This document shows, one piece after another, positions 1-19,853 of a stretch of 20,000 nucleotides of DNA. The translations under genes were made by a program, and so were the position numbers. Every line of letters begins with the position of its first letter. Position 1 is the first letter of the stretch. The DNA lies in the IMG/VR virus record IMGVR_UViG_3300009605_000001. One strand, given 5' to 3'. This stretch comes from an uncultured virus (IMG/VR IMGVR_UViG_3300009605_000001) (lineage: Duplodnaviria; Heunggongvirae; Uroviricota; Caudoviricetes). The notes beneath the pieces are model-generated. The model worked only from the letters and a program-made list of their open reading frames with translations. It did no database searches and was not told the DNA's origin.

Positions 1-486
1 GGTAACCACTACTGGTTCACCATTAACTCGCGTGCCTCTCTTTTTTAAGGCAGCAGCAAACATACCCTCTTCACTCTTCTCACCGAGTTTTAATCCTTTA
101 AGCAAACTATTTAAAGTCCAGTTTAGACTTTGTGTAATGTCACCACCTAAAAACTTAGAATCAGCGAGCATGTTGTTTTGCATTAAGTCAATACTAAGTT
201 CAGCAACTATCTGCGCAGTATTAAGATCATTAGCAAGGATACCTAACTTTCTAAGGTCAAAACTATTTCCATTATAAGTAACTACCTTGCCTCCCGCTAA
301 TAAATGCTGCTTCAACATCTTTAATAAAGCTCTAGCTTCACTTCCGCTTACTGAACGAGTAGGCGAGAAATGCTTACCCTTTTTAAACCCCACTCTTCCT
401 GCTGCTTCAAGTGTTCTTTCAACACCACCAATACCTACAATACGTTGTTCCAAGTCCATCGTAGTTTCAATATCAATAGATATAAC
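1..486 (-). other. DEDD/DnaQ-superfamily (RNase H-fold) 3'-5' exonuclease domain within the giant ORF, truncated by the window edge
   Basis: Exo I: VISIDIETTMDLEQRIVGIGGV (D3301 at 474-472, E3303 at 468-466). Exo II: KVVTYNGNSFDLRKLG (N3368, D3373 at 258-256). These are followed by SIDLM and WTLNSLLKGLKLGEKSEEG, in the order expected for YprB/RNase_H_2-like or polymerase proofreading exonucleases. Exo III would lie beyond base 1. Confidence 0.8.
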
Positions 487-3400
487 ATTATCTGTATCGT
501 ATATCCAATTAGGGTTGCTTTGGATTTCAATAATATTAGCTGCTTCAGCTTCATCTAAACCTAGCGATGTTAAGATTTCTACTGCTTTGGTAGGATTATG
601 TTGAGACCACATAGTTCTTTCTGGTGCAGCCCTAGCCATAATATTCATCTCAAGCAAACCTAAACTAGATAGTCTCTTCATAGCTGTAGTAATTGGAGAG
701 ATTAAAGACTCAATAAAGAAGGGTAATGCATTAGGTCTAAGTCCAGCATCTGGTCTATAATAATTAATCCAGTCTACAACTCTAGGTTTAATATTACCAG
801 ATGAACGAGAACCATCAACAAGCATATGAGCAACGGTGTGTCCTGATTCAACACGATCTACTATAATCTCCATTGCTTCACTTAAGACTCTTTCTCTGTT
901 CATCTTTTCAGTTTCACTGTAGCCGAAGTAATCAGCCATCTCTTCAGCATCAGATCGAACTAACTCAGGCTTACCTTCGGCATTAGATCGATAGCGACCT
1001 GTTGGCTTGTTGGTACGCATCGCGGTTTCTATTCTTTCGATAAAAGGATAGTTCTTATGTGACGAAAGCATCAGTAAAGCACCCATTGGTGTAATACCGA
1101 GTTTCATGTTTGTTCCGATTACCGTTCTTGGAACTCTCATAAGCATAGTAAAGGGGCCACCCATAGGATTACGTAAAATCATTTTATCAGTACGTTCATC
1201 CTTCGTTGGCTGCTGCTGTATTAACTTAACAAGGTCATTTCTACCCTCAACACTCTCTACAATAAAATCAAAGGAGAATACAGGATCATTTGCTAGTACA
1301 GCTTTCTCTCTAGCTACATTAATAATAGCTTCTCTGTGATCTGGAGGAATAGCGTTAAAGGATTGTATATCTCTTTGATTAGCAATAACTCTTAATTGTT
1401 TCTTTAGTGCGGGCTCCTTAACAATACCTATATATGTTTCTATAGCTTCAGATATATACCCATCCCACAGTACTCCTACAAGAAACTCCAACTCATCCAC
1501 AGACTGAACAAGTAAGGGATGTATGGCCGTCTCTTCTAGTTTAATTGTTTCGCCCGGATTAACCCCCTCTTCAATTATAAAGTGCTCTGTAGGAACTAAG
1601 CTTTTTTTCAAAGCTTTGTGAATAAGGGTTGGTCCGGATAAGACAGAGAATGGATTATTCTCCGAATATGGACTTGTCAGGATATCATATAGCGTTCTAT
1701 CTGCTAAGTCTGGATTTAAAATACCAATTTCATGTCCCTTAGTTTCCATAAGTAAGGAAGACATCTCTTTGTATCTAATATCCCGAGATAATTGGAACAG
1801 CGCGTGGAATCCTTCGAGGTATGTATTACGGGCTTGTAGTAGTTTCTCTTCGTTAGTTAGTCCTTTATCTCCATAGCGTACAGCAGAAATGATCTGGTCC
1901 ATTTCATGTTCAAGTTTTTGATCAAACCTATATACTAAATACAAGTACGGTACCATTTCTGGATCAAGCATCTCTGCCTCAAAGCCACGTTCTATTGCCC
2001 ACTTACTCATCTTCATCTCAACAACATTAGCTACCATCTCAGGTGCATTAGCATCTAATCCCATAAGATAGTCTAGATAATCAGACTTAACATCTGGACC
2101 CATTGGAAGAGTTTCTCTATTCCAAGGTTTCTCGAATCCTCTACTAGTTACTGGAATTAAGTGATCAGGGTTTTCTAAGGGTTGGTCTAACATAGCCGAT
2201 ACTTCTTCAATAGGACTCATCATCTCTCGTTCAGCGGCATGATAAGCTTTATTCTGAAGGTATAGGTTGCCCTTATTGTGATAAGGCATTCTCCTAGTTT
2301 CAGGAGCCCAAGACATGTATCCCCTTGGTTTGTCTGTAGACTCGAATACCATATCTTCTGTATCGTGTCGTAGTTCTGTCATTGTATGTTCTGCGGACCC
2401 TCTGAAGGTCATAGGATGTCCTGCGACTGGGACCAGTAAACCTATACCCTTAGAGAAATAATCTATGCTTGCTTGGTTTCGAGAACCATCAGCATTCCTA
2501 ACACTATCTTGTTGTAGTCTTTGCGCATTAGTATGATCTATAGCAGCTTCTTGAGAATGCTCCCACCACTGACTCAATACTTCGGCTTCGAGTTCATCCA
2601 TATTATCTTCAGCTTTATATTTTGACAGAGGCGGCTTCTCGGGTTCTGTAACTCTAAGAAGCATTTCATTTCTCATCATAAGAACAGCAATAGTATGATC
2701 CATTCTCTTGTGCCACTCCGCTACTTCAGCGTCATTATCAAAATCAACCATTCTCATTATGGGGTTGCCATATTTATCTAACCTTACCTTCCCATTTTTA
2801 TCCCTAACCGGAATCTTTTGATGAGGATTATCTTCCATTCTCCACTGACCCAACGGAGATTCGCCTTCTACGTCTACAAATACTTGCTTACCGTTTACAT
2901 ATTCGTAGGGATTTTCAGACCACTCCATGATCTTTCTACCAATCTTAGCAGGGTTATCCCAATCTTCATCTCTAATCTCTTCTGCTACGAAACTTTTAAA
3001 CGCATCTTGATTAGTTTGGATTCTAGCAAACATCGTGTTGTGATGGTGTCTATTCATATTAGAACTTGCAGAATAGGTTCTATAACTCTCAAGACCGGGT
3101 AAGAAGATTTGATACAGAATAAAGTTCTGAATTCCAAGAAGATCTTCTTCATTAAATCTCTGGTGATTAGTTGCTGCTTGTGCCTTTAATACATCTACAG
3201 CAACTCTGAACCCCGTAGAGTTTACTGTATTTAATGCTCTGAATAATTGATTATGTTTCCAGTGCATACCCTTTGGTTGCAGTAATTGGCCAACCTCTTC
3301 CCTTTCAGCTAAAGTTAGCTTTCCTCCTTCTCCCGACTTTGCCCTAGCATCTGCTTTCCTAATGATTGCGTCAGCTTTCATCAACCTACTATTCTTATAC

Positions 3401-6400
3401 TTCTCCTTAAATGCTTCTACAGTCATCTGAACTCTTTCGCCATCCGGTCCTATCATCATCTCACGCTTAGCTAACATAGCAATATTTAGATCCAGTTGTC
3501 GGCGTAAATAATCTCTTTTCATAGCGGGGTTATTTTGATCTGTTTTCTTAATCTCCTTGTTCCGCATACTCTTTACAGTTGAAATCCAATCTGTTATATG
3601 CCTATCTGTCATGTTTTCGTGCATCGACAGAATTTTTCTTGCTTCTTCCCGAAGACCCTCAATACCCAAAGCTACATCAATAACAGCAGCGTTCTCACCC
3701 GCTATATGGTCAAATATAGAATGTCCAAACAAAGCCATAACATGTGATATACCTTCAGATTGATCCTTAAAATTAAAACCAAACTCTTGCCTCAGCCTAG
3801 TCAGGATACCTACAAACATTGGATCGGTTTGTAGTTCTACCCAGCCTTTCCATCCCATAGTATATAGCCTACGCATAACTTCTGGTTTCCAGAATTCACG
3901 CATCAGCTTCATCTTCCTAACCATATCAGGATCAGAGCCTTCATTACTAACGTAATCAGTATACTTAGTATGATCATCGATTCCCAACGTAGCTAACTGA
4001 TCATAAAACGTAACCATTGGAGAGAGAAGTTCGCCATATTCTGGGTGTGCTAAAGCCTTTCTTCTAACGGTTTCAGCAAAACCTAAACCAGCTCTGATAT
4101 AATAATCTTCAGCCTCAATAGACATATTCATTTTATTCCTTAACTCACCCATAGCGGTAATAGCTGCTTCGCTACCGAGACTTAGAATCTTAGTTACAAA
4201 TAAACCATTAAACTTCTTATCCAAGTAAGTCTTTGGTGAAAGGATCCTTTTATAGAACTCTGGGTTTTCCCAATACTTTGGCCCAAACTCTTTATAATGT
4301 TCTTTTGCATAGGCTTGTTCTGCTTCGGTAGCCTGTTGAATAACATCATTGGCTAATCCTTCTAAGTGCATGTTCATGCTTTCTAAAGCAAGTATAGAAG
4401 AAATACCACTCATTGGAACAATAGTAGGTAAGCCTGTAGTAAGCTCAGGGTGTATCATTTTAAAAGCTGCATCACCCTCTGAAGTATAGACTAACCCCGG
4501 ACCAGCCGCCCAACGAGCATCATGGAGGAAAGCATAAGCAATATTTGCTGTATCTAATAGAACCTCAGAAAGAATATTCTTAAGTTCTTCTCTAGTAGTA
4601 ATTCTATCGTTTAGTCTTACATTAATAATAGGAGGCAATAACCTAGCATCTGGTTGAAGACTTCTAGAAACAGGTCTACCCGGCACAGCACCATCTTTAT
4701 CTTCTAGATAAGCGTTGTATTCTATAATATCGTTCTCATCAATCTCTTCTGTAAAGATAAACTCTAATCGTTTCCTTACAATAGCATCTTCAATCACAAG
4801 AGCAACAGCCTCAGGTCGTTCTGGAGCAAAGGAAGTCATGTGTCCCCGTAACATCGGGTGTGTCCGGACTGTCTCTCCTTCTTGCGGCTCATCAAAACGA
4901 TTCTCTTCTTTTCTTTCTGATCTATATTCTGGGGATTTTCGTCTCTTGGTAACTATTTCTTTAGTTTTTAGTCTGGTTACTAAAGCAAAGTCAACCAGTT
5001 CCCAACCAAGCCGTCTTGCTGGTTGCCAGCCCCGAGTACCGTCCCCCATACTAATGATCTCGTCTCTAGTAATTAGGGTGTGTTCATTATCACCCTCTGC
5101 AAGCCTATCAAGAATTATACTAGCTATTCTATCTAGGTCTTTTAAGTCTTCTGGAATCTTAAAGTAAGCATATATATCTTTCTTCTGTCTTTGAGATTGC
5201 ATAAAGAGTACTTCTAATTGCTCAACTATACCCTTTCTAACCTCCTCAAGATATTTCATCTCTGCTTCTGCTCTTGATTCCGGATCATCTAGATCAAAGG
5301 TAATTGTTTGGTCAAGATCGGGAGAAAGATTATCTGTTAAATCAATTAGGAAACCATACTGATTAAACAAATCATCATCGACTGCTCTCGACGCTTTCAT
5401 AAGTCTATCGGTAAACGCAATGGCAGTATATAACCCAATCTTAGATTTAGGATCTCTATCATAAACCATAACATCTTCTTCTGTAGCCCTAGTTTCAGCA
5501 TTCTTTGCTATTACTGCCTGATGTGCCGTGTCTCGTTTTTTGATAAAGGTTACTAATCCTTCATCCCCCTTGAAGTCATGCAACAGACTTTTTAAAAGGT
5601 TCTTAGGAAATCCACCTTCCCCTGCTAAAGTAAGGGCTCGAACATCCTGTACAAACCCCCAATCTGTTAGATCTGGGCTAACGAGAGTCTTCCCTTCAGC
5701 TTCAAGGCGGTTATTGATGCCCGAGATATATCTAAATAATCCTAACTGACCTTCTTCTGACTCGAAAGCCTTAAAGAGTTTGTGTATAATTTGCCTTGCT
5801 TCTAGTTCGTTAATACGGCCATCCTGAAGTGCCGTCCTAATTTCTGCAACCCATGAATTAGCTTCGTGGATTCTCCACTTCTCCCCCTTTTCCTCAATCC
5901 TCTGAAGAACCTTTTGAACCTTTGCATCACCTTCTTTCGCTACAAGTCTCCGTCCTCTAATGCGGCGAACTAAGTCTGTGAGAGACTCTTTTGAGATTGC
6001 TTTAAGATCACCATTAGCTCTCATTATTCTACGAGTAACTAAGGCAATAAGTTTATCTAATCTAACAAACAAAGTATCATACTCAAGACTCAAATCTTCC
6101 ATCGTTCTGTTACTAGGAAACTCCTCGCCTTCTGCATTAACAATAACTTCTCTAAAGACTGCATCATAGATACCATCTGGGAGACAACTATCAACAACGA
6201 AGATTGGAACCAATCCTACTTCAGGATCTAAGGCTCTACCCCACGGTCCTTCAAGTACAGATATTAATTGCGAATGAAACTCTTGAAGTGCCATCAACTC
6301 TTCTGCTAATGTAAATGCATACTCTTCAGGAACTATTCCTCTATCTATACTTTCTTTGTTTATCGCGGTTTTGTTTGCAGCTTCAGTATTAGTTCGATCA

Positions 6401-9400
6401 ATAGCTGGAGCTTCTGTAGCTTGGTTAATCCCCCACTGAGAAGCAGTAATTGGCCTGTTACTTACACGACTCCAATTAACATCTTTGAAGTAGTTCCTCT
6501 TAATAGACTTTATATATGTCTCTCGTTCTTTAGCAGCCTCTTCAAATATAGCTAATGCTTCTTCCTTACTATAAACAATTGGATCCTCATCGCTATCTGC
6601 TCTCTCATCTATTTCTTTCTTAACCCTGTCTTTGGTAGCACTTTCAGGTAAGAACGCTCCTAATAAGTCTTCAGCAGAAATAGTCTCTGTGGTTTCGAGT
6701 TTCTTTGTTAATACATGTCTTCGTATTGTTAAAGTCTTTAGTTCTTTATTACGATAATCTAATACTGCCCTGATTGTTTTCAGCTGATAAGACGCAAAAC
6801 CATATTTCCTAGCCATATCTAGTTTGTATCTTAAGGATATCTTTTCACGCTTTCTATCTAACCTCTTCATATCCTCTTCTAATTTCTCCAATTGTCTATA
6901 TTCATCTGAAGGTTGAATTACCTTAGTAAATATTTCATTCTGCATTCCAATAAGACCCAAAGCTAATGCTCTTAAGTCATCAAGCTTAACCCGCCCACTC
7001 TTTATACCTTCTAGGAGACTAGCTTTATTTTTTTCATTACTCTTTATAGTTTCCCATGTCTGTACAGCCTCTTCAAGATCGGCCCATTCTTCAGGAGAAA
7101 CATCATTCTTATCCATTTCCCCCTTTTGTCTCCACTTTGGGTGTTTCCCTGCTTCTGCTTCTGCCGCAATCGTATCAACAAAGGTTTTACTTAAGGTGCC
7201 AACTACTAGAGAAAGTTTAGATATCCTTTTACCCTTTTCACCTACATACTTTGTATCAATAGCATCTCGTATCTCTTTAACCTTTTCAGTTAACTCACCG
7301 ATCTCCTTCTTTACGTCTCTTAAAGCTTCACTATCGGATTCAACATCCTGCCACGCAGCAATACTTTCATCAAACTCGGAGATTAACTCGTCCATTTCAG
7401 CAATAAGTTCGTCAAGTTTATTCCTTATTTTTGGATCGGTAGTTCCTTCTCGTTCTTCTTCAAGAGCTGCCTTAAGGCTTTCAGCTTCCTCTTTCTCTTT
7501 TGTTGTTTGGACAACTGCGGATTGTTGCTCTCCTTCTTGTGCTCTAAGACTATCTATCCTAGCGTTTACAAGACCCTCCCCCTCAAGATCTTTCTTTCGC
7601 CATGCTTCCTCTTCTTCAGTTAGTTTTTTGTCGGCAATAATCTTCTTAGCAATACGATCAGAAATCTCCCAGTCAGTCTCTGGAACCTTATCAGTTACCT
7701 CCTTGATCTCAGCATCAATCTTTTTAATAGCTACAGTAAGTTGCCTAACTGTTTCCTTCTTACTTGCAAAATCTTCAAGTTCAAACAACTCTTCTACCGT
7801 AGTAACTTTTTCTCTGTCTATCTCAACTTTTTCCATACCCTTTTTTCTCTTGTGAGATATTTTACCAGTCTTAGAGTGCTTCCAATAAAAACCCATACGA
7901 AATATTTCACCAGCAAAGGATTCTACTATACCGGTAATTTGTGCTTGTATCTTACCCTTCCTCTCAACTTTATCTTGTATCCCCGCCATTGCCTTTTCTC
8001 GTTCAGCTTGAGCTACTCCAGCCTCCTTTAGTCTCTTGGCTCTTTTTCTCGCCGCCCTCATTAGGCTAACCTTACGTCTAAGTGTAGACGGTTTTTTTGG
8101 AGCTAGCTGTGGTGACTCCTTTATCTGTTTTTTAATAATACGGTCTACTGCTTCTTTATGCTCATTATATATCTTCTCTTCTTCCTTAGTTAATGTCACA
8201 TCACCTCTTTTTTTAATAGCAATATCAACTAAGACAGAATCTTCCTCCTCCTCCTTCGCTTGAATTAAAGAGTCAACATCTTCAGCCTTTTGTTTAAGTC
8301 TTTCTAACTCTGTTGTATTAGCCTCTAAAGAAAGTTTAAGTTTCTCTTCCTTTTCTCTAAATTTTTCCTCAACCTCAACCTCAATATCATGAACTACTTT
8401 AAGCTTTTCTGCAGCTGTGGCTGTATCAAAATTAAGTCCTTCTTTATCCATCCTCACACGAACCATACTCTCTACATTATCATCAACATATATTTCCCAA
8501 AGATCTTCATCAGAAATTTCATCTGTTTGATTAAGCCACTCCTCTGGGGTAAAGTTAGTTCCGTTTTCCTCATTCAACTTACGTACATATCTTGCCACCC
8601 GAAGCCTAGTTTTTGCTATAGCTGTACGTTCTCCTAGTTGTTTAGCTAAAGTCTGGGCTTCTGGTCCTCCTAATCTTTGAATTAGTCTATTAGCAATCTC
8701 ATCTAGAAGTACATCATCAGATATCTTCTCCCCATCCAAATCATTTTTAATTTCTTCTAACAGACTAAGAATACTGGTTACATCATCATATGTATTAACC
8801 CCGTCTCTGATCTGCCAAGGATCAAGAACAAAACCAAGAGGTCCATCCATTAAATCATTTAAGTCAATATCTCCACCTTCTTGTCGAATAGAGTTTAAGG
8901 AATCAACGACTGAATCACCTAACTCATAATGCTCTATAGCTGCTAAGATAGGATTATCACTACCCCTTGCGGCTGCCTTCCAAGCTTCTGTAATACTAGA
9001 CCTAAGTCTAGCACCAAGTGGAAGACTCATAATACCTTGACCAATTATACCACCAGCTGCTGAAAGAGGAGCGTTTACTGTATACTTCATAGCTGTTCCA
9101 AGGATTGGGTTTGCTACGACAGAGAACACAGCCTCCATCTTTGCTTCAGCCCAGATACCACCTAAATCATACTCATCAATAAACCCTCTTTTAATTTTCA
9201 AAGTTTGGTTTATACCTTCAGCTAAAGCACCCTCAACGAAACCCTCTCCTGCATTAAGAGGAGAACTATATAACATTCCCCTTAAGCCTTTTGTTTTAGC
9301 TAGCCTTTTACCAAGATCTGGGGCAATCTTACTAAAGATAGTTGTGCCTATGTTTTCTGGAAGCCAGTCAACAATCTTAGCTATCTTTGTTGCATGTGTA

Positions 9401-10374: not shown

Positions 10375-10380
10375 TTAGTT

Positions 10381-10386
10381 CTCCTT
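10381..10386 (-). promoter_or_regulatory. Shine-Dalgarno site (AAGGAG) of the giant ORF
   Basis: The minus strand reads TTTAAGGAGAACTAA-ATG, with 6 nt spacing. Confidence 0.85.
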
Positions 10387-10412
10387 AAAGAATAAGTAGG
10401 TTAGTAGAAGGA

Positions 10413-13400
10413 TCATTGGTGTCTATTGCGTATTGTCTCCTGAATATCAGGCAATACCTCCCCGAGTTTTTCGCCAATTTTTTCGCCAATTTTTCCAGCA
10501 GCTGTTTCGGGTATGGCCTCTTTTAGAATGTCGACAAAGACTTTCATATGTGGGGGTAAGACTGCATAAGCAGCCTCCCAAGTAGCTGGATCATTCCTAA
10601 TTGGTTGCAGGGTTTCAATCAGATTATTCCACCAATGAGGATACTCCCCATTATTATAGTATCTGTATTGTTCAACGCTATCCTTTATGTTTGTTTTCAT
10701 CTCTTCTATTAATGCGTCTCTCTCCGTCTTATCTCCTGTTGCACCAGCAATAGTACTCAATGCTTGATTAATAATCATGTTTGTACGGCCTACCGGTCCA
10801 TGTTTGGGTGCTCCTGCAGCGACATCTATAGCAAACCCAACAAGCATAAGAATTTTTCTTACTTTTCCACCTGTAACTTTATCAAGATTTTCCTCCAAAC
10901 CCTCCAGATCAAGACCACCTTCGTCGATGATCCCCCAATCCTCTAAGAGCTGTACTGTGTTTGCTAGAGCCAGAGTATTCATAAATACACCCTCAGCAAT
11001 AGCCCCACCTAACGTGCTGTTTAGTTGATCATCTGCAAGAAGTTGATCTACCCTTTCTTGCTGTGCTACTCTTCGATCTATCATATCATTACTCAACTCC
11101 CAACCAAGACCCCGTATAATTCTTTCTCTGCCCCCAATACCTTGTACAACAATATCAAATTTTGGATTAGCTCCCCGTTTTCCTCTTCTTCCAGCAGGAT
11201 CTGGGGCTCTTACTTCTGTAATAAGCCTAGAGCTAGTTCTTATCATTAATCTACCATAATCGTCTGTTCCATACCCGGATTGAAACAGCCCCATCTCTTC
11301 AGCGTAAGCTTCTATCTTTTCCCCGCCCACTCTATCATCTAGTATAAACTTACGCATAGCACCTATGGACCAGTCTAGCATAGTTCTAGCTGTCCACTTA
11401 TTGTCTTGACTTCCCCACGATGCTCTTTCTTGTTCCCACATAGGTTCCAGTATTTCTTCTTTAAATACTTCAAAACCTTTAGGATCATCGGGATCCATCC
11501 CAATAGCGGGCAAATACACGCCAAAAGTATTTACCATGTTTTGCCACGTTATCAGGTTTATATGCTCTTCTGCTCCCTCTACTAAAGATAGGTTCTCTCT
11601 AGTTCGTTCTCTTGCAGGAATCCATACAACATGAGATGAATTATCTCCTGTTACATAGTGAGATACGGTTCTAGCATCTTTTTCATCCTTATCTAAAGAA
11701 GGCAGAATTTTATGAATACCGATTCCCTTACCCGGCATAAAACCCATTTCAATAGTCTGACCGTTATCGTCTCTTCTTACAGGCACCATGGTAACTTCCA
11801 GTAGTCCTAACGAACCCTCAATTTGGTTAATTATTTGGGACATACGTAATTTAGTACCAGAGGTACTACGAATACTGTGTGAAAGTATCATAGATTCCAT
11901 CATATCTCTGGTTGTCGGATTATTCGTGTACATGTTAAAAATAGAAAGAACTTTGCCTCGGGATGTTGGGTGCTCTACGCCAAGAAGAATTTCTTTTGAG
12001 TTTTCACTTAACGCGTCATACTCAGTCTTCCACTGTTTCCCGTCATCGTCTCCATGATATATTATACGCAGATCCTCTAAATCATTCTGCGCTCTTGGTT
12101 TTAAGTTCCACGACTGATCTCCGGGCATCCATGACCAGTCCCTTGTTGCTAGTGGTCCAGTTAGTCTATTTAAAGAATGTTTCATAGCCTGATACGAGGT
12201 TTCTGTTGTTCCTTGAATCACCTCTGGGCTTACTAAATACATTAGTGTATTTATCTGATGAAGATTGTGATCACTCATACTATCGAATAAAAGTTTCATA
12301 GCATACTCAGGACTAACGGAAACAGTTTTACCATCCTGAGAGATTTCCATTGTCTCCAGTTCTGGTGTCATAGTATATCGTACAGCTTCATCTAAAAACT
12401 CCCACATAGACTTTCCCATCGCAGCAGAAGAGTCGTTCAAAGCAACACCAAGGTTTGCAGATACACCCCTAAGATATTCTGCAAAGAATGAGTCATCGCC
12501 CAAACCCTCAAATATTCTATTAATTAGATTCAGACCATCGCCTCTAGTAGCTCCCGCTATTCTTCTTAGGTCTCCTAATACAGCTAAAGACACCAGCATT
12601 TTAGAAGCAGCTTCTGGGTTCGTTAGAAGCTCTTCTGTATCCATTAATGCTCCTGTTCCATATTCAGATTTTAAAAGCTGCATAGACTCTATCATAGCGT
12701 CTCCATATGCTCTATAAAATGAAGGAGTCTCTTTATATTTGTGTATGGAGTTGTCATGCATAATCCAAGCTCCAATACCGTACATCCTTAGGGGATCCAT
12801 ATCCACACGTTGTCCGTCCTCTCCTACATCAAAGAACTTAATACCTAAGTCTCCATTTTCCATAATATCTTCTATATGAAGGATATTAATATCTACATCC
12901 TCAGGTAGTCCCATGCCTGCACGCAGCATAGCATTAGCATCAGCATTTATTTGCTTAACTGCAGCTATAATACTTTCCTGAACCTGTGGAGCTAAAGCAT
13001 TCCAGCCGTTATCTTTAATAAATCTACTAAGATGAGCACCATCATCACTACTGGCAGGGTCTATAAGGTACGACTCCATAGTACTGCCCCATGAAACTTT
13101 AGTACTCCGCGCTGCTTCTGACATAGATTGCTTATCTCTTACATTATCCCATATCCTATCGGTTTCTTCACTAACCTTAAACGCCTTAAAACTATCACTG
13201 TAGGTTCGCAGGATAAGCATATTTGTATCATGAGAGAACTCACCCTGACTTGCTCGTAGTACATAGTTTTCAATAGCCGTATTCCACTCACTTATAGGAG
13301 TATCAAGATCTCTTACATTTGGTATATCCTTTAGGTTTATAATTTCGCTAAATATTCTAGCAGTATTCCAAATCCTCCTTTCATCTAAGGTTCTAGGCCT

Positions 13401-14705
13401 ATTGATCCTTTGTTTCTCTGCTAACAATTCTAGCATCTCTTCGTTGTTTAAACTATACTCTACTAATGATGCATCCATATCCATGAGAATACTATCATAA
13501 TACGCAGTCATTGGATCATCTGGATCCATCTTATCAATAGCCAACGCTAACGCTTGTCGTTTTATTTTCCAAGTGTTTGCTTCCATATCCTGTATACCTA
13601 AGTCTAAGAACATATCTATAATATGTTTAGCTTCTGTTGTTTTAGCTGGTGTCTCTTCCCTTCGTCTTACTTGATTATCTAGCATAGCTTGCGCATTATC
13701 ACCAATATCTTTAGTTAAGAATATTGGCTCAGTTAGATCTGGCTTTTGGAACGTTATATATGATGCAATAGCATCTTTAAGTTTCCCTATATTGCCAAGT
13801 AACTCTTCAGACTCTATGAGGCTAGTACGCTCTTCTTCACTCATAGCCTGAATCCGCTCACCTAAAAATCCATCTTCTCCAAAGAAGTCTCCAACCTCCG
13901 TTAGATTATTTACTTGAAACTGGACAAACTCATCCCACTCTTCTTCCCCCCATATTTGTGCAAAGTAATCTGTAAGCGGGGAATATTCACCCTCTACAAA
14001 TAATTCTTCTACCAACAACCAAGTGTCACACTCTTCTACAATCTGAAGATCAAAATCATGATCTTGCTCAACCATACGGACTTCATTATTAGCTTTTTGG
14101 TGTTCTTGTCTTCTGATTTGACTAGACATATTATCTACCCACTTAACAACAGTCTCTTCATCAATCGGTCCAGTTCCTCTCATTAAAGCTTCTGCGGGGC
14201 CGAGAGGTATGGTTTTACCTGTTTCATCAAACTGGTGAGGCCCTGCGATCCCCAGCTTGTGCAGTCCATAAGGATCTCTAACATTAGGAGCAACGCCACC
14301 AGTGTCCTGATAAAAAATATCTAGACCGGTTTCAACAAAAACTTCTCTTCTTAACCTTTCCTCTTCGGGCTTCAGATGACCCGTCCATCCATACGCACTG
14401 GGCCGCTGATGTTCCCACTCCCCACTCTCCAAAAGCCTTGCTCCAGTGTCCGTACTTCCTCTTGTATAACGCCAATTTTGTCTCGTAGAAGAAAGAGTTT
14501 CAGTAGGTACTGTTAACATCTCATCTAATTTTTGCTGTCCTTTAGCTTCTCTAAGTCTTGTATTCCACGGAGGCTCGGGAGACCTCATCATCAGACTCCT
14601 TCGCGACATAGGTGTTGATTGCTCTAGATTATTTTTTCTGTTATTCCCTAGCATATTATCTATGAGTGTGTCATATTTCTTATCATTAATTGGTAAACTA
14701 GGCAT
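10413..14705 (-). CDS. Large internal virion protein, 1430 aa (positional analogue of T7 gp15; no recognisable catalytic motif)
   Basis: Long ORF with SD GGAGGT and a TGATG overlap with the upstream gene's stop. It is acidic and helical-looking, has a single Cys, and sits directly before the giant protein. Function is assigned by position and composition only. Confidence 0.7.
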   Translation of the reverse strand: MPSLPINDKKYDTLIDNMLGNNRKNNLEQSTPMSRRSLMMRSPEPPWNTRLREAKGQQKLDEMLTVPTETLSSTRQNWRYTRGSTDTGARLLESGEWEHQRPSAYGWTGHLKPEEERLRREVFVETGLDIFYQDTGGVAPNVRDPYGLHKLGIAGPHQFDETGKTIPLGPAEALMRGTGPIDEETVVKWVDNMSSQIRRQEHQKANNEVRMVEQDHDFDLQIVEECDTWLLVEELFVEGEYSPLTDYFAQIWGEEEWDEFVQFQVNNLTEVGDFFGEDGFLGERIQAMSEEERTSLIESEELLGNIGKLKDAIASYITFQKPDLTEPIFLTKDIGDNAQAMLDNQVRRREETPAKTTEAKHIIDMFLDLGIQDMEANTWKIKRQALALAIDKMDPDDPMTAYYDSILMDMDASLVEYSLNNEEMLELLAEKQRINRPRTLDERRIWNTARIFSEIINLKDIPNVRDLDTPISEWNTAIENYVLRASQGEFSHDTNMLILRTYSDSFKAFKVSEETDRIWDNVRDKQSMSEAARSTKVSWGSTMESYLIDPASSDDGAHLSRFIKDNGWNALAPQVQESIIAAVKQINADANAMLRAGMGLPEDVDINILHIEDIMENGDLGIKFFDVGEDGQRVDMDPLRMYGIGAWIMHDNSIHKYKETPSFYRAYGDAMIESMQLLKSEYGTGALMDTEELLTNPEAASKMLVSLAVLGDLRRIAGATRGDGLNLINRIFEGLGDDSFFAEYLRGVSANLGVALNDSSAAMGKSMWEFLDEAVRYTMTPELETMEISQDGKTVSVSPEYAMKLLFDSMSDHNLHQINTLMYLVSPEVIQGTTETSYQAMKHSLNRLTGPLATRDWSWMPGDQSWNLKPRAQNDLEDLRIIYHGDDDGKQWKTEYDALSENSKEILLGVEHPTSRGKVLSIFNMYTNNPTTRDMMESMILSHSIRSTSGTKLRMSQIINQIEGSLGLLEVTMVPVRRDDNGQTIEMGFMPGKGIGIHKILPSLDKDEKDARTVSHYVTGDNSSHVVWIPARERTRENLSLVEGAEEHINLITWQNMVNTFGVYLPAIGMDPDDPKGFEVFKEEILEPMWEQERASWGSQDNKWTARTMLDWSIGAMRKFILDDRVGGEKIEAYAEEMGLFQSGYGTDDYGRLMIRTSSRLITEVRAPDPAGRRGKRGANPKFDIVVQGIGGRERIIRGLGWELSNDMIDRRVAQQERVDQLLADDQLNSTLGGAIAEGVFMNTLALANTVQLLEDWGIIDEGGLDLEGLEENLDKVTGGKVRKILMLVGFAIDVAAGAPKHGPVGRTNMIINQALSTIAGATGDKTERDALIEEMKTNIKDSVEQYRYYNNGEYPHWWNNLIETLQPIRNDPATWEAAYAVLPPHMKVFVDILKEAIPETAAGKIGEKIGEKLGEVLPDIQETIRNRHQ
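10467..10494. repeat. 12-nt tandem repeat (tttttcgccaat, approx. 2.3 copies) encoding KIGE-KIGE-KLGE at the C-terminus of the 1430-aa protein
   Basis: Exact copies at 10467-10478 and 10479-10490, then a partial copy; in frame. Confidence 0.8.
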
Positions 14706-15694
14706 CAGCTACCTCCCTTCAGCTTACGTAGGCGTGCAAAAAGTAATTCCTTTTGTTCCTTGAGTCGTTTCTCTGCCAAGCTACCCTCAAGAACAACCTT
14801 CTGATATTGAGAAAGATCTTCAAGTCTAGCTATAGCTTGATCTCTATCCAGCTTACTAATTTCTTCATTTGTTATCCATTTATATTTTCGCTTAGGATCT
14901 TCATAAATGTTTTCTATACCAACTACCCCAAAACCAGTACGTTTTTCTACGGGAAGGATACGTTCTGTATTAAGAATCTCAGTTAATTCTTCTTCATATG
15001 CATCTCGTTCCGCTTTTTGTGCAGCTATATCAGGGGCCGAAAGATCTACTTGTTTTATAATCTCATCAACGCTTCTCATCAAACCGATTCTCTCCTGCTC
15101 TTTCTGAGCTAAAGACTCTTGTAGAGCTATACTTTGTCTCTTATTAAAAGCATCTCTACGAGCCTGTATCTTAGCATCCTCATCAGCTTCCTTAGCGTCT
15201 TCCTCATACAGTTGCCGTTTTGCTTCTCTGTCCTCATCTTCCCCTCTAGCTACCCCTATTGCGGCTATTAAATCTAATTGCTCTTGAGCTAAGTCCTTTG
15301 CTTCTTGCATATTATTTGTATGCCCAACGAAATCTCCTGCTATAGCTTCCTTTCCCTCCGCAACAGTCATGATTCTGCCATTGATTCTAGCATCATTCTC
15401 CCCAAGAGTATGGCTATACTCCTGTGCTTCTACCCCTGCGTCATTGCCCGCCGCCACTCTATCCTTTTTGTTTTGTTCATCGTTTTTTCTCCAGTAATCA
15501 AAAAGCTTAGTAGCCTGACTTAGGAAAGCAGCTCCGTTTTGCCATGCTTCCATCATTTTCGTATGATAGAATATAGCAGCTCCGTTAGCGTTTTGTGTAC
15601 GCTGTACCTGACTAACTGGAGTCAGTCCCATTACCTTTAAGGATCTATCTACTTCCGGAGTACCCGGAGGATTAATCTGCATAACACTAGACAT
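14705..15694 (-). CDS. Putative internal virion protein, 329 aa, coiled-coil rich
   Basis: ATG at 15694 after AGGGGGG-TAAAAA, overlapping the upstream stop (ATGTCTAG). It has no Cys, a Pro-containing extended N-terminus and E/K/A/Q-rich helices. Confidence 0.65.
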   Translation of the reverse strand: MSSVMQINPPGTPEVDRSLKVMGLTPVSQVQRTQNANGAAIFYHTKMMEAWQNGAAFLSQATKLFDYWRKNDEQNKKDRVAAGNDAGVEAQEYSHTLGENDARINGRIMTVAEGKEAIAGDFVGHTNNMQEAKDLAQEQLDLIAAIGVARGEDEDREAKRQLYEEDAKEADEDAKIQARRDAFNKRQSIALQESLAQKEQERIGLMRSVDEIIKQVDLSAPDIAAQKAERDAYEEELTEILNTERILPVEKRTGFGVVGIENIYEDPKRKYKWITNEEISKLDRDQAIARLEDLSQYQKVVLEGSLAEKRLKEQKELLFARLRKLKGGS

Positions 15695-16715
15695 TTTTTA
15701 CCCCCCTTTTTTCTGAGGTTTGAAGTAGACCTTCCCATTTTTTAATAAAGTCAAATATAAGATCGTGTTCATTAGTATATATGTTTTGATCAATAGCTTT
15801 AGTTACAACCTTTTCAAGTCCTTGATTAACGGCTGCTACTGGATCAAACTGTAACTGGGCATAGTCTAAGATAATATTATTATGGTGCTCAGTAAAGTTA
15901 TTACCTAGTGTATCTAGCTTATCAAACAACACTCTTTTGTTTTCCCTATCTAATAATTGATACTCTTGTTCAGCTTCTTTGTATTTAGGAGCTAGCATCT
16001 TATCAATCATATTATAGTTATCAGAGTATAGTATGTATTCTTCTTGGGGATCTATAGGATTATAGTCTTCTTGTACAAGAGAATATATAGGAACCAGAGC
16101 ACCTTGAACAGATACAGCAATCCTACCTGCCTCATCCGTATGTATCTCATCTGGAGTATATCCATACTGTATCGCAGAGTATAAGTCTTCAGAGTGTATC
16201 CTTCGGCCTACAGCATGAGATAGTTTAAAATCATCTCTTGTAGTAATGTGATTAACTGCGTCTTCTGTATTTAGTTTATTATTAATTCTACTAAGCTCTA
16301 AAGCCCTACCTTCTCCCATTATACGACTACGCTCAATATCCATTTCATATTCTTTTTGTAGCCACGAAGGCCACGAAGAAGCGTTATTCTTAAAGTAATC
16401 TCCCCGTTCAGAATCTGATGGAAGCTGGTCAAGCTCTCTATTTATACGGTTAGTTGTATCACTTTTAAAAGATGAGCCCGGATATGCCTGCTCTTCTAGT
16501 TCCCACATTTTATCATTAATATCTGGATGAGAGATAACGTCTCTGGTTTCTCGTTTGAATACTCTATAACGATCCTTTGGACTTAGGTTTGCAGGTATGC
16601 TGTTTAATGCAGTCTTACTAGCATCTAGCTGGGCTTTAGCAAGAAGCTGCTTAGGTGTAACAGTTTCTCGCGGAGTACCTTTAGCTATCATTTGAAGTGT
16701 ATTATAATCAGCCAC
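15687..16715 (-). CDS. Putative internal virion protein, 342 aa (start revised to GTG at 16715)
   Basis: SD GGAGGAGG (16728-16721) lies 5 nt before GTG 16715, and GTGGCTGA overlaps the upstream stop. The track's TTG start at 16730 overlaps that SD and is less likely. No Cys. Confidence 0.65.
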   Translation of the reverse strand: MADYNTLQMIAKGTPRETVTPKQLLAKAQLDASKTALNSIPANLSPKDRYRVFKRETRDVISHPDINDKMWELEEQAYPGSSFKSDTTNRINRELDQLPSDSERGDYFKNNASSWPSWLQKEYEMDIERSRIMGEGRALELSRINNKLNTEDAVNHITTRDDFKLSHAVGRRIHSEDLYSAIQYGYTPDEIHTDEAGRIAVSVQGALVPIYSLVQEDYNPIDPQEEYILYSDNYNMIDKMLAPKYKEAEQEYQLLDRENKRVLFDKLDTLGNNFTEHHNNIILDYAQLQFDPVAAVNQGLEKVVTKAIDQNIYTNEHDLIFDFIKKWEGLLQTSEKRGVKNV

Positions 16716-17403
16716 TGCTACCTCCTCCAATTAAACTATAATAATTATTAGTAGTATCACCACCTGCTTGGGACGCGCCAAGTGCACTGACAGCGTAGCC
16801 CATAGTATTAGCAGCACCACCAATTATTCCAGCATAGAGAGATTGCTCAAATGCAGCGGCTGGATCTGGTCCACCATATCGTGCAGGTATAAACGGCACA
16901 TGTTCGTTATATCCAAAGTCTCGTCCTGCTAAAGCTTGGGCTTGTTTTCGCTCAGATCCAATAAGCTGGTTCGATACATTAATCCTTAGTCCACTCATAG
17001 CTTCTTGTGAAGCTTCGTTTTGTTGACGCAGCAAAGCCCTAGCAGTACCAGAGTTTGGATCAATACCCTGACCCGACAACCTAGAGTACAACTCATCCTG
17101 AGCAGCCTTATGTTGTTTGCCATAGGCTCCAGCTTGGTTATCCCAATTATACCTAATATAGAAATCCTCTTCAGCTCTTCTTTTGTTGGCAGTCTCAGCA
17201 ATCATCTTATTATTAAACCATCTCATAGCGTTTTGCTTAGCTACGTTTCGGTTTTCTATTTGATTCTGCCATCTCCTCTGGAACTCAGCTTCCTCAAAGT
17301 TAGCCCTTTGGGCTGCAGCTTCGGCTGCTGATGCGTTTGCTCCGGCCTCTGCCTGCATGAACTGCAGTCCAGCCATAACTGGGATTCCCCATATCAGTGG
17401 CAT
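16708..17403 (-). CDS. Internal virion protein resembling T7 gp14 (ejection protein), 231 aa (start revised to ATG 17403)
   Basis: SD GAGGAGG precedes ATG 17403. It has a hydrophobic N-terminus (MPLIWGIPVMAGLQFM), an Ala/Gln-rich helix, a central SGQGIDPNSGTA Gly/Ser turn and a G/A-rich hydrophobic C-terminus (AGIIGGAANTMGYAVSALGASQAGG). This is the gp14-like architecture. No Cys. Confidence 0.7.
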   Translation of the reverse strand: MPLIWGIPVMAGLQFMQAEAGANASAAEAAAQRANFEEAEFQRRWQNQIENRNVAKQNAMRWFNNKMIAETANKRRAEEDFYIRYNWDNQAGAYGKQHKAAQDELYSRLSGQGIDPNSGTARALLRQQNEASQEAMSGLRINVSNQLIGSERKQAQALAGRDFGYNEHVPFIPARYGGPDPAAAFEQSLYAGIIGGAANTMGYAVSALGASQAGGDTTNNYYSLIGGGSSG

Positions 17404-17501
17404 TATAAGCCTCCTCACAGCCTGTCTAAGGCATTCTAAAATAAGATGTGCTACCTCCAAGGGTACAGCCGAAACGCCCACACAGGCGATCCTACGGCTT
17501 C
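17404..17501 (-). promoter_or_regulatory. GC-rich structured intergenic element between terL and the ejectosome genes (candidate cis-regulatory RNA or processing site)
   Basis: On the minus strand, AGCCG (17499-17495) pairs with CGGCT (17471-17467) and encloses the hairpin CGCCT-GTGT-GGGCG. It is followed by TACC-CTTGGA-GGTA and GCCT-TAGAC-AGGC, just before SD GAGGAGG. There is no long U-tract after the main stem. Confidence 0.4.
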
Positions 17502-19199
17502 TCAGGACCAGCTACGACCCTTGTTCCTTCGACCCTGCCACTTTGCGTGGTTGGGGTCTATAATCTGCTCTTTTTCTTTATGGAAATGTACCGCCCCCGA
17601 CAACTTTTCAGACCACATTCCCATACGTCTATCATCATTCAACCATGTCTTGACGATATCTTGACGAATCTTTTCTCGGTTGTGTTCAATTATTACTTCT
17701 ACATCTGTAGAAAGAAGATCCTCCCAGTATCCTACCGTTGCTGCAAGGCAGTCTATACGGTCATCCTTAGGTAAGGCTCCTCTCTTATCAAAGATTCTAG
17801 TTATCTGTTTCTGTGTTTCTTCTTGAGAGATAGCTCTCTTGTCTATGACTAATCTGTGCTGAGTCATGACAGGTTCTAAAAGGGATATTATCCTAGCTTC
17901 CTTGCGACCTACTGCTCTAAAGTCTTCGATGGCAATAGAACCACATACCTCGGTTAGGATTGGTGCGAGTAACTGACAGAACATAGCATCTCCGAAGTTA
18001 CTCTCAACACGAACTAGCTTAACACCATACTCATAAGCAAGCCGGGCAATTTTCTTAAGAACACCCTTCTCATATCCACCGGGATATCCTACTAACTCAT
18101 GAATATAGACATAACCATTCGCGAAAGAAGCAACACACACCGCTGTCTCATCTTCTCCACGCCCGCTAGGGTCGATATACATAACCCTTTGAACATAAGG
18201 AACAAACTTTTCAGAAATCCACATGGGATCATAAATTAAATCTCCTGTAAGACCAAAGGTAGGAATACCTTTCATCGGTTTAGAATTAGACCAGACAATT
18301 TTTTCTGGACACATATCTGGGTGAACATCTATAACAATAAGATCTGATAATCTAAGCGGGAACTTCTCAAAGTCCGCTAAGGATGTGTCTAGTTTATAAT
18401 GCAACGCAAATAACTTAGGCCCAATCTTAGCCATACGCTCCATCAAAACTTCCATAGGAAATCTTTCAGGCTGGGTTGGCTGGCCAGCCTCTAATCCTGA
18501 TTGCAATACCCACTCATTAACATCTTCAACCTCAACCACGCTATCTAGATCAGGCATAACTGCAGGAAACTTTGTTACGGGATAACCAGTCTTAAGTTGG
18601 TTATAGATTGAATCCTTAATCTGGGGAGTACCTAGAAAGAGAACACGCCCCCCTACATTCCTGATCTGTTCAAACTCAGCCACCTTATTCATAAGCTTTT
18701 CTCGGGATGCTGCGGTTTCGCAGTTACCCTCAATCTCAACATCATCAGCAATTACAAAGTCTGCGTGAGAACCGGTTAGCTGAGAAGAAATTCCACGAGC
18801 AAAGCAAGACTTGTCTTGTCCAATCTTTGTACGACACTCAACATCAAATGCAAAAGCATTGTCTGTAGTGTGGTCACCGGGTCTAAGCGGTTCACAGTAA
18901 GGCACCAGATCCATAATCTTCCTAGTCATGGAGATAAACTCTGCTGCCTTATTACTGGTAGCCGATACAACCATAATTGTTTTATTAGGATCTTGTAAAA
19001 GAAACCAAGAGGCTAAACAAGAAGTAATAACCGATTTTCCAAAACCACGCCCAGCTTGTAACTGCATATCGACAGGACCATTTTGCAAAGCATCAGCCAT
19101 AGCATACTGTGCAGCAGTAGGTTCTCCTATCCCCAGATATTTAAAACAGGCCCAGAGATGATTACGAAAATCGTCTAGCATTTCTTGTGGTATGTTCAT
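17502..19199 (-). CDS. terL: Terminase large subunit, T7 gp19-type, 565 aa
   Basis: Walker A QAGRGFGKS; GISSQLTGSHADFVIADDVE (Walker B); coupling motif LGTPQ; nuclease motifs IDPSGRGEDET, ESNFGDAMF and DDRIDCLA. All closely follow T7 gp19-family motifs. SD-like AAGGAAG upstream. Confidence 0.95.
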   Translation of the reverse strand: MNIPQEMLDDFRNHLWACFKYLGIGEPTAAQYAMADALQNGPVDMQLQAGRGFGKSVITSCLASWFLLQDPNKTIMVVSATSNKAAEFISMTRKIMDLVPYCEPLRPGDHTTDNAFAFDVECRTKIGQDKSCFARGISSQLTGSHADFVIADDVEIEGNCETAASREKLMNKVAEFEQIRNVGGRVLFLGTPQIKDSIYNQLKTGYPVTKFPAVMPDLDSVVEVEDVNEWVLQSGLEAGQPTQPERFPMEVLMERMAKIGPKLFALHYKLDTSLADFEKFPLRLSDLIVIDVHPDMCPEKIVWSNSKPMKGIPTFGLTGDLIYDPMWISEKFVPYVQRVMYIDPSGRGEDETAVCVASFANGYVYIHELVGYPGGYEKGVLKKIARLAYEYGVKLVRVESNFGDAMFCQLLAPILTEVCGSIAIEDFRAVGRKEARIISLLEPVMTQHRLVIDKRAISQEETQKQITRIFDKRGALPKDDRIDCLAATVGYWEDLLSTDVEVIIEHNREKIRQDIVKTWLNDDRRMGMWSEKLSGAVHFHKEKEQIIDPNHAKWQGRRNKGRSWS

Positions 19200-19218: not shown

Positions 19219-19515
19219 TTATTGTGTAAAGAAATCACGGAATGGCGTACCACCCTTTTTAGTATTGCTTGCAAGCCTATTTACCCAGCGAGCTCTCTTA
19301 TGCTTCAGCACACGGTCCCTCGTTTTGGCAAAGGCCTTGGCAAGCCCCTTCATCGTCTTGATAGGGGTCTCGGACATAGGGGCAATACTTTGATCTTGAT
19401 AATTTCTCATGACATGGCTCAGGAAACTCCTACCACTACCATGCTTTTTTCGGTAATCCTCAGCTCTTTTAACTAATTCTCTCTGCCAGACTCGTGCTTT
19501 TTTCTTCTTACCCAT
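19219..19515 (-). CDS. Small highly basic hypothetical protein, 98 aa
   Basis: ATG 19515 after AGAAAGGATATTGATC (SD AAAGGA); ends in TAATAA. About 27 K+R versus 7 D+E. Confidence 0.75.
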   Translation of the reverse strand: MGKKKKARVWQRELVKRAEDYRKKHGSGRSFLSHVMRNYQDQSIAPMSETPIKTMKGLAKAFAKTRDRVLKHKRARWVNRLASNTKKGGTPFRDFFTQ

Positions 19516-19531
19516 GATCAATATCCTTTCT
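19512..19531 (-). repeat. 20-nt direct repeat AGAAAGGATATTGATCATGG (SD plus start codon), downstream copy
   Basis: Identical to 19834-19853. Confidence 0.9.
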
Positions 19532-19540
19532 GTTGGTTGT

Positions 19541-19837
19541 TTATGGCCTTCTTAAATAATCGATAAGAGCTGCGCCACCTGATATAAGGTTTGTGGCAGG
19601 ATTGAACATCGCAGTCAATCTATATTTGTTCATTCCTCTAGAGGTTGCTTTAACTGCGCCCTTAACCGATTTACTTGGTTTTGCGGCAGTCCCTCCTCTT
19701 GTCTCCATGCTTTTTCCGACCTTCGCGATTTTCTTAGTGGAAGCTTTCTTCTCCGCGGCGGCAGCCTTTCTATCTTTTTTCTTTTTCCACGCTGGTCTAG
19801 TGTCTTTTCCCCGTTTACCTAAAGCATTCTTAGCCAT
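19541..19837 (-). CDS. Small Lys/Ala-rich basic hypothetical protein, 98 aa (histone H1-like composition)
   Basis: ATG 19837 after the same SD-containing 20-mer. About 27 K+R versus 5 D+E (KKKKDRKAAAAEKKASTKKIAKVGK), with a mildly hydrophobic C-terminus. Confidence 0.75.
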   Translation of the reverse strand: MAKNALGKRGKDTRPAWKKKKDRKAAAAEKKASTKKIAKVGKSMETRGGTAAKPSKSVKGAVKATSRGMNKYRLTAMFNPATNLISGGAALIDYLRRP

Positions 19838-19853
19838 GATCAATATCCTTTCT
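19834..19853 (-). repeat. 20-nt direct repeat AGAAAGGATATTGATCATGG (upstream gene stop, SD and start codon), upstream copy
   Basis: Identical to 19512-19531; 322 nt apart. Confidence 0.9.

Follow-up and report, generated by a model that had tools for sequence, protein, structure and literature searches.

How would a phage with a T7-type terminase come to carry, as the last of its presumed ejection genes, a protein larger than the virion RNA polymerase (vRNAP) of phage N4, and is that protein itself an RNA polymerase (RNAP)? This question is raised by the final 20,000 bases (hereafter the window) of the 67,632-base uncultured virus contig IMGVR_UViG_3300009605_000001, positions on which carry the prefix G000. 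The original prediction, made from the letters of the window, read the locus as a mosaic of T7-like packaging genes and an N4-scale, RNAP-like virion protein, single-subunit virion RNAPs being a hallmark of the Schitoviridae according to the accessible text of PMC13434306. The scale was judged correctly: the giant protein has 5359 amino acids (aa) against 3500 aa in the N4 vRNAP, and its homologues measure 3500–5700 aa. We are highly confident that the giant contains a core homologous to T7-family RNAPs. To judge from profile comparisons it is also likely that the motif blocks of this core stand in a rearranged order, a point that lies beyond the original prediction.

Homologous giants were gathered in three ways, from 17 loci by synteny, with a word search, and with a profile run over 1.84 billion proteins (59 matches), the last of which is biased towards giants having the core; an extra search for fragment homologues brought no additions. 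In what follows, L-numbers denote related loci or contigs and P-numbers homologous protein sequences. Conservation was counted in 73 sequences after removal of near-duplicates, three core-less ones being left out, and always among those spanning the site in question. Identity to the window core is low (median 18%, range 13–49%), and across the spanning homologues D1952 (62/62), G1981 (62/62), D2052 (62/62) and R2432 (63/63) are invariant. No acidic residue of the core is invariant apart from D2052 and D1952, the latter preceded by H in 45 cases and by Q in 12. In motif B, K2163 is kept in 64 of 64, R or K at position 2159 likewise in 64 of 64, and Y2171 in 61 of 65. With T7 numbering taken from the T7 RNAP sequence record, D2052 is the counterpart of D537, K2163 of K631, R2432 of R425 and the near-invariant Y2171 of Y639. 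Motifs A and B align to T7 526–648 in profile–profile comparison, and P0060, a homologue fragment, scores above the cut-off of PF00940.

The fold points the same way. AlphaFold2 models of the window core and of the L090 core have a mean predicted local distance difference test score (pLDDT) of 65 and 66, respectively, and with VIA-align each places the T7 and human mitochondrial RNAPs as the top two of 48,161 chains. For the window core the match has Z 5.9, a root-mean-square deviation (rmsd) of 2.9 and 99 aligned residues; for the L090 core it has Z 8.5, rmsd 2.2–3.3 and 89–104 aligned residues, the next row standing at Z 5.7. Against T7 elongation complexes the L090 core reaches Z 8.8–9.1 (best Z 9.1, rmsd 2.6, 101 aligned, T7 542–690), and the structural match is limited to the fingers. 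The N4 vRNAP, at Z 4.5–4.7, lies below the Z of 8.5 obtained with the T7 and mitochondrial enzymes. The motif A Asp, the motif B pattern R-x3-K-x7-Y and the fingers fold of a T7-family RNAP are thus all present in the core.

Comparison of a window-based core profile with 17 canonical RNAPs returned four local matches that are not collinear. Twelve blocks of T7 RNAP, built from canonical and second-RNAP sequences, were tested against an L090-based alignment with reversed alignments as controls (P 0.25–0.89). Motif C (T7 804–820) falls at profile position 199 (P 0.041), motif A at 285 (P 0.038), motif B at 396 (P 3e-4), the AIN block at 601 (P 3.6e-4, against 0.25 in its reversed control) and the DxxGR block at 646 (P 0.0036), and the same four stretches were recovered with the window-based profile. 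The order in the core would be C-A-B-(AIN)-(DxxGR), against (AIN)-(DxxGR)-A-B-C in T7. The position of AIN and DxxGR behind motif B, where they are adjacent and in their own right order, appears to be the better supported part of this reordering. For a motif C in front, the evidence is the P value of 0.04, the invariance of the Asp, the reading V/I-H-D-S in distant members of a pattern that is H-D-S/A overall, and the lack of any other invariant acidic residue. As candidates for motif C, the Asp of ‘EDLLG’ or ‘GLQDH’ (two homologues) after motif B was dropped, because these positions are not invariant and the stretch aligns with T7 313–443.

Since the T7 order X-Y-Z appears as Z-Y-X, at least two events are needed, and a single circular permutation is insufficient because AIN/DxxGR has also moved behind motif B. 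One possible route would have the enzyme first divided in two, as N4 RNAPII is, its catalytic subunit then permuted and the parts fused again; a join of the canonical C-terminal S-x-Y-F to motif A is no more than suggestive. An aromatic residue stands two positions before the motif A Asp in 24 of 51 sequences. The branch of L068–L070 has the best-preserved motif A (FDADASG-like), with AIN/DxxGR not clean and E-E-x-x-H in the place of HExxH. The rearranged order would explain why standard profiles miss the core. No permuted T7-type RNAP, and no virion RNAP in the Autographiviridae, was found described in literature titles and abstract openings, a scope outside which most subscription papers fall.

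The setting of the giant would suit an ejection protein. Along the minus strand, which carries all sizeable genes, terL is followed in succession by open reading frames (ORFs) of 231, 342, 329, 1430 and 5359 aa. The T7-type terL, the gap of exactly 98 nt to the next ATG (17403) and the absence of head and tail genes before the block had all been noted in the original prediction, and PF22530, phrog_38 and the ORF map confirm them; the portal, capsid and tail genes lie at G000 755–14458, with none between terL and the giant. This block is likely to represent relocated ejection genes. When 34 homologues of the 231-aa protein were aligned, six proved to match PF24072 (T7_gp14; best E 6e-8), the window copy itself being unmatched. 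The 342-aa protein has homologues at the same position in relatives and no significant Pfam or PHROG family match, the 329-aa protein has no Pfam or PHROG family match, and an ORF of 1000–2500 aa precedes the giant in relatives. Sequence and profile comparison found no gp15 or gp16 homology for the 342-, 329- and 1430-aa proteins, nor any homology of the giant, its ends included, to T7 gp16 or two marine equivalents. ‘Gp16-like’ is therefore true by position only, and the suggestion that the vRNAP arose by fusion to a gp16-like protein finds no support in these comparisons. The labels ‘internal-virion’ and ‘RNAP-like’ become visible through homologue profiles, and are invisible in direct library searches of the window proteins.

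Cysteine is scarce throughout the block, with two residues in the 5359 of the giant, one in the 1430-aa protein and none in the 342- and 329-aa proteins, against 1.2–3.3% in the genome's enzymes. Across 54 non-redundant giants there are 55 cysteines among 246,072 residues, and the N4 vRNAP and T7 gp16 have none. Cysteine avoidance holds for the ejected proteins counted, and may be a general rule for such proteins. ESM Atlas look-alikes of the giant's C-terminal part are phage proteins with LPD39/LPD38 as nearest named families, which is a lead only.

The clade as a whole shares the order terS-terL-gp14-like-...-giant. Of 67 loci found by searching with TerL, 40 of at least 10 kb were mapped (three of them the same phage as the window). 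A homologue of the 231-aa gene lies downstream of terL, directly or past one inserted ORF, in 36 of the 40 (34 by BLAST, two by profile; the remaining four loci end too early), and a terS homologue lies upstream of terL in 39 of the 40 loci listed. Tail tube B adjoins the fibre genes directly in the mapped relatives. Unlike this, T7, CRP-114 and S-TIP37 have the canonical order, in which the genes for internal virion proteins separate tail tube B from the tail fibre and come ahead of terS and terL; the arrangement expected of Autographiviridae, ejection genes mid-tail and terminase last, is replaced here by a block after terL. An extra ORF of 390–1077 aa stands between terL and the gp14-like gene in L023/L024, L044, L054 and L067, a branch that includes core-less giants. 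Contigs of other sequencing runs reproduce the block without indels, one of them covering window positions 2858–15480 with 11 differing letters, so that the giant ORF is not a product of assembly.

Beyond its core, the giant carries further modules. In the deepest branch (L090, L091, L112–L115) it is two genes, of 918–1197 aa and about 4000 aa, the N-terminal module being separate and the exonuclease lying upstream of the core. Weak Protein Data Bank (PDB) matches of the N-terminal module (E>=0.07, hydrophobic segment) were set aside as chance. An exonuclease-like domain of DEDDy type falls below the cut-off of PF13482 (RNase_H_2; E 6e-4) and has all DEDDy residues (D3301, E3303, D3373, Y3500, D3504); in the window giant it lies downstream of the core, and of 51 core-bearing giants 28 have it, 19 of them upstream of the core and 9 downstream. 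A metallopeptidase-like region is present in 46 of 54 giants, with HExxH recovered in 37 of the 54 and EEIGH in the window copy, and gave no profile match to the HExxH region of N4 (E 0.1). Comparison of P0004 and P0005 with L076 shows this region apparently interrupted by the exonuclease-like domain, suggesting insertion. The core itself is found in 14 of the 17 giants chosen by synteny, and the three core-less giants form one TerL branch.

The original prediction also proposed looking for a standalone T7-like RNAP, and one is present (813 aa, PF00940 E 7e-82), as it is in all nine relatives that are at least 90% complete. Homologues of the second, 627-aa RNAP-like gene lie downstream of the giant in most relatives; in two genomes with core-less giants this second RNAP is far closer to PF00940 (170 and 99 bits) than elsewhere. 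Downstream of the second RNAP gene, on the template strand, are three C-GGA-G triloop hairpins (G000 37242–37345), which share a GC-GGA-GC core with two of the three such hairpins upstream of N4 early genes. The corresponding regions of ten core-bearing relatives hold 18 C-GGA-G hairpins on the template strand and 4 on the other, short stems of this kind being expected by chance. Four hairpins of another type, TGACC-loop-GGTCA, occur at G000 40550–41855, at most 1.3 kb past the stop codon of the giant, the rest of the genome having none; three of them are just upstream of ribosome-binding sites, the region has about 50% GC against 40%, and the type is sparse in relatives.

On balance we favour the reading that the giant is a virion RNAP, injected to begin early transcription, which resembles that of N4 in role and not in detectable descent; that its core is catalytically active seems likely. 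The five genes downstream of terL would be expressed late and their products packaged inside the head. When the phage adsorbs, a channel would be formed by the gp14-like and mid-sized proteins, as it is by T7 gp14/gp15 and N4 gp51/gp52; the giant would follow as a loose string of domains, anchored at the inner membrane through its hydrophobic segment. The core would then refold so that two metals are bound by D1952, the motif C residue now in front, and by D2052 of motif A. Its promoters would be hairpins on the template strand as this enters, with the C-GGA-G trio as first candidates. The core would transcribe the early genes leading to the standalone 813-aa T7-type RNAP. The exonuclease-like and metallopeptidase-like domains may be accessory cargo, and one lineage has lost the core.

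Several observations weigh against this reading. Foldseek gave no match at E<=0.001 for either core model, and its weak rows, with the N4 vRNAP and the N4 RNAPII small subunit (probability 0.5–0.7, E 0.8–1.6; Z 3.3–3.4 for the latter by structural alignment), are leads only. The window core has no direct Pfam, PHROG or PDB sequence match: for the whole window giant Pfam gave a sub-threshold RNase_H_2 only, PHROGs nothing useful and PDB sequences none, and neither that giant nor the L090 core found a match among 50,697 phage records. The core profile likewise matched no PDB sequence, and the ESM Atlas returned low-scoring unrelated clusters only. About 100 fingers residues superimpose, the Z of 5.9 falls within the range of chance arrangements, and the palm is weak in both models (pLDDT below 50 in the motif A region), so that the pairing of D1952 with D2052 remains a candidate. 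The assignment of motif C, at P 0.04, comes from 12 blocks tested; a wider T7 block (771–883) reached only P 0.09, and six of the 12 blocks went unmatched (N-terminal domain, 261–305, thumb, 451–525, specificity-loop region and C-terminus). The window protein lacks the Asp of DxxGR, and the core is dispensable in the core-less branch, given that 3 of the 17 synteny giants are without it. Template-strand hairpins are absent from 2 of the 10 core-bearing relatives and some occur in both core-less ones, so their presence does not separate the two kinds of genome. What is said here of the giant's role derives from genes, profiles and models.

These points bear differently on the alternatives. An active polymerase with a mechanical or replicative job, pulling the genome in by transcription or laying down RNA primers while the host RNAP or the second short RNAP reads the early genes, would fit a genome that already has two standalone RNAPs, the unmatched thumb and specificity-loop blocks, and hairpins that, lying downstream of the second RNAP gene, could be that enzyme's promoters; transcription does drive DNA entry in T7 (accessible text of PMC13434306). 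We nevertheless hold it rather unlikely, since the ejected RNAP of N4 transcribes early genes from hairpins with the same loop sequence, and genome pulling is in any case compatible with early transcription. The core might instead be an inactive DNA-binding or structural channel module derived from a polymerase, motif C having been lost and D1952 being a look-alike, for which the P value of motif C, the low-confidence palm, the loss of the core in one branch and the missing DxxGR Asp of the window copy can be cited. Against this, the invariant residues are those that catalysis needs (two Asp, Lys and Arg) despite the 13–49% identity, and in the L090 model the candidate Asp has a short strand on either side, which is the arrangement expected for motif C (pLDDT about 60); this explanation appears unlikely.

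A family-A DNA polymerase, working with the neighbouring exonuclease-like domain to repair or process the ends of the entering genome, is a very unlikely identity for the core. The domain is indeed found in 28 of 51 core-bearing giants, 19 of them with it in the region directly upstream, and an apicoplast family-A polymerase ranks third in the window-model fold search (Z 5.0), but RNAPs lead both fold searches, the AIN and DxxGR blocks match T7 RNAP, the exonuclease is absent from 23 of the 51 and shifts position, and the genome has a DNA polymerase A of its own. Motif C of family-A DNA polymerases is H-D-E, whereas here it reads H-D-S/A. That a T7-like phage acquired an N4-type ejection operon and vRNAP whole, as a true mosaic, is hardly credible. 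The giant shares the outline of N4 gp50, with HExxH in 37 of 54 giants, and the gp14-like family shows a weak profile match to N4 gp52 (11 bits); yet N4 vRNAP, gp51, gp52 and gp15 have no tblastn match in the genome or against the 54 giants, the first gene of the block probably belongs to the T7 gp14 family, the N4 vRNAP stands far below T7 RNAP by fold, and a rearranged order in the N4 vRNAP was not found described in the literature accessible to us. The N4 RNAPII subunits for which the original prediction advised a check did not appear, gp15 being without a match and gp16 touching only the standalone RNAP (tblastn, E 0.03). Nothing N4-derived was detected, and the genes do not place the phage in the Schitoviridae; what survives of the predicted mosaic is a T7-like lineage, poorly described, whose ejection block is relocated and whose largest ejection-type protein has an RNAP module; an N4 module is not supported.

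Table. Features of the locus and of the rest of the contig; window positions count from the first base of the window.
Feature	Window position	Contig position (G000)	Strand	Remarks
Giant protein, first 3458 of 5359 aa	1..10374	41927-58006	-	
DEDDy-type 3'-5' exonuclease-like domain, start (aa 3291-3520)	1..504		-	extends past window
Single-subunit RNAP-like core (~aa 1772-2720)	2215..5061		-	
R2432, counterpart of T7 R425 in DxxGR	3079..3081		-	downstream of motif B
Segment matching T7 RNAP 313-340 (AIN..Q..W.IN helix and strand)	3184..3258		-	downstream of motif B
Motif B, R2159-x3-K2163-x7-Y2171	3862..3900		-	
D2052, motif A Asp (T7 D537 counterpart)	4219..4221		-	
D1952 in H-D-A, candidate motif C Asp	4519..4521		-	upstream of motif A
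Conserved N-terminal module (aa 40-560)	8695..10257		-	
Hydrophobic segment in N-terminal module (aa 274-294)	9493-9555		-	
1430-aa protein, putative positional counterpart of T7 gp15	10413..14705		-	one cysteine
329-aa helical-type protein, putative ejection protein	14705..15694		-	no cysteine; variable among relatives
342-aa protein, putative ejection protein	15687..16715		-	no cysteine; likely GTG start at 16715
Putative ejection protein (gp14-like), 231 aa	16708..17403		-	starts 98 nt past terL; homologues match PF24072
T7-type terminase large subunit (terL), 565 aa	17502..19199		-	PF22530 E 9e-34; phrog_38 E 1e-91
Two 100-aa Lys-rich ORFs between terS and terL	19219..19843		-	third at G000 160-522
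terS, 72 aa		524-742		PF11123 E 8.7e-6; phrog_1351 E 1e-4
Standalone T7-type RNAP, 813 aa		26892-29333		PF00940 E 7e-82; phrog_414
Second RNAP-like gene, 627 aa		38136-40019	-	motifs in canonical order

The contig is circular by a 124-nt end repeat, giving a genome of 67.5 kb, and the small terminase that could not be recognised from the window lies across this junction, 1.2 kb upstream of terL; contigs L005–L007 span the junction, and the PF11123 match of terS scores 26.2 bits against a cut-off of 27.5. One contig runs across both candidate genome-end positions. On the minus strand, small early genes including the 627-aa RNAP-like gene lead to the 813-aa RNAP, followed by primase-helicase, DNA polymerase A and other DNA metabolism genes, and then by portal, scaffold, capsid, tail tubes A and B, tail fibre, terS, three Lys-rich ORFs and terL. 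Pfam and PHROG searches identify T7-type portal, scaffold, capsid, tail tubes A/B, TerL, primase-helicase and DNA polymerase A, all of them present. The Lys/Arg-rich ORFs, of 100–120 aa, are matched among the mapped loci only in contigs of this same phage, and two share the same 20-nt stretch upstream. A decoration-type gene (319-aa homologue) precedes terS in L068–L070. Between primase-helicase and DNA polymerase is a 226-aa ORF (G000 21825–22505, minus strand), which we take to resemble a sulfotransferase by its N-terminal motif. No tRNA was detected within the window.

The sequencing runs that contain the sequence come from marine metagenomes, and a host search found no relative among 185,579 species genomes. 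The closest cultured matches of TerL are T7-like phages (37–40% identity), and five of the six related contigs looked up are assigned to group AG-10.1 in the supplements of Du et al. (2025; PMC12361551), whose host scores for relatives (0.15–0.17) are not usable. In a FastTree phylogeny of this single gene, with 29 sequences and few outgroups, the window TerL branches within a set of five contigs listed as AG-10.1 and away from three cultured outgroups, with support 1.0. The accessible text of that survey gives AG-10.1 large genomes, a 3274–5566-aa protein in all members and a second RNAP of about 650 aa downstream of the giant, traits seen here in the 67.5 kb genome, the 5359-aa giant and the 627-aa gene. 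By its sequence, the phage is T7-like (Autographiviridae) throughout and belongs to AG-10.1. Eight of the giants in the survey have RNase_H and four RNA_pol matches; the function is called unclear, and gain by gene transfer is suggested. ‘Internal virion’ and ‘virion RNA’ are absent from its main text, as are ‘virion’, ‘ejection’, ‘large protein’ and ‘gene order’ from its readable supplements. As far as these sources extend, the lineage and the giant were already described, and the ejection role, the relocation past terL and the motif order were not found there. The original prediction had allowed that a described family with this order as standard would count against it, and so it does in that AG-10.1 is a described group, every member carrying the giant; the function left unclear there, without mention of an ejection protein or virion RNAP in the text accessible to us, does not.

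Were the favoured reading true, polymerase injection would have arisen, or been rebuilt, on more than one occasion, and the fold of the T7 and mitochondrial enzymes would tolerate a reordering so far known from some RNA-virus polymerases. It would also give a testable role to a protein left unexplained by the 2025 survey of a globally distributed marine group. More tentatively, and with somewhat less than even confidence, AG-10.1 may represent a second, independently built class of virion RNAP, active and reverse-ordered (C, A-B-fingers, AIN/DxxGR), that heads a three-polymerase cascade free of the host RNAP, and whose branches (split N-terminal module, moving exonuclease, core-less branch) record its assembly and loss. 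The gene order alone would be a useful clade marker, of modest interest.

Among known systems, the birnavirus and permutotetravirus RNA-dependent RNA polymerases have permuted C-A-B palms (accessible text of PMC8310298), and the core resembles them in a motif C upstream of motif A in a right-hand polymerase; they differ from it as RNA-dependent enzymes of another family. The window block recalls T7 gp14-gp15-gp16 in that a gp14-like gene leads cysteine-poor genes of rising size, while T7 gp16, with 1318 aa, is without a polymerase and has no detected homology to the giant. N4 differs in several respects: the window phage has T7-type terminase, portal, capsid, tail and DNA replication genes, its third polymerase is phage-encoded, and its giant has rearranged blocks, an exonuclease-like domain and EEIGH for HExxH. 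The accessible text of PMC5512222 outlines N4 gp50 as an N-terminal region, RNAP, HExxH domain and C-terminal region, and that of PMC13434306 describes an ejected single-subunit RNAP that transcribes the early genes from hairpins. The likeness is that a protein free of cysteine in N4 and poor in it here ends the ejection operon, with an RNAP core mid-protein and an HExxH-type domain downstream, and that both phages have GGA-loop hairpins and what appears to be a three-polymerase programme.

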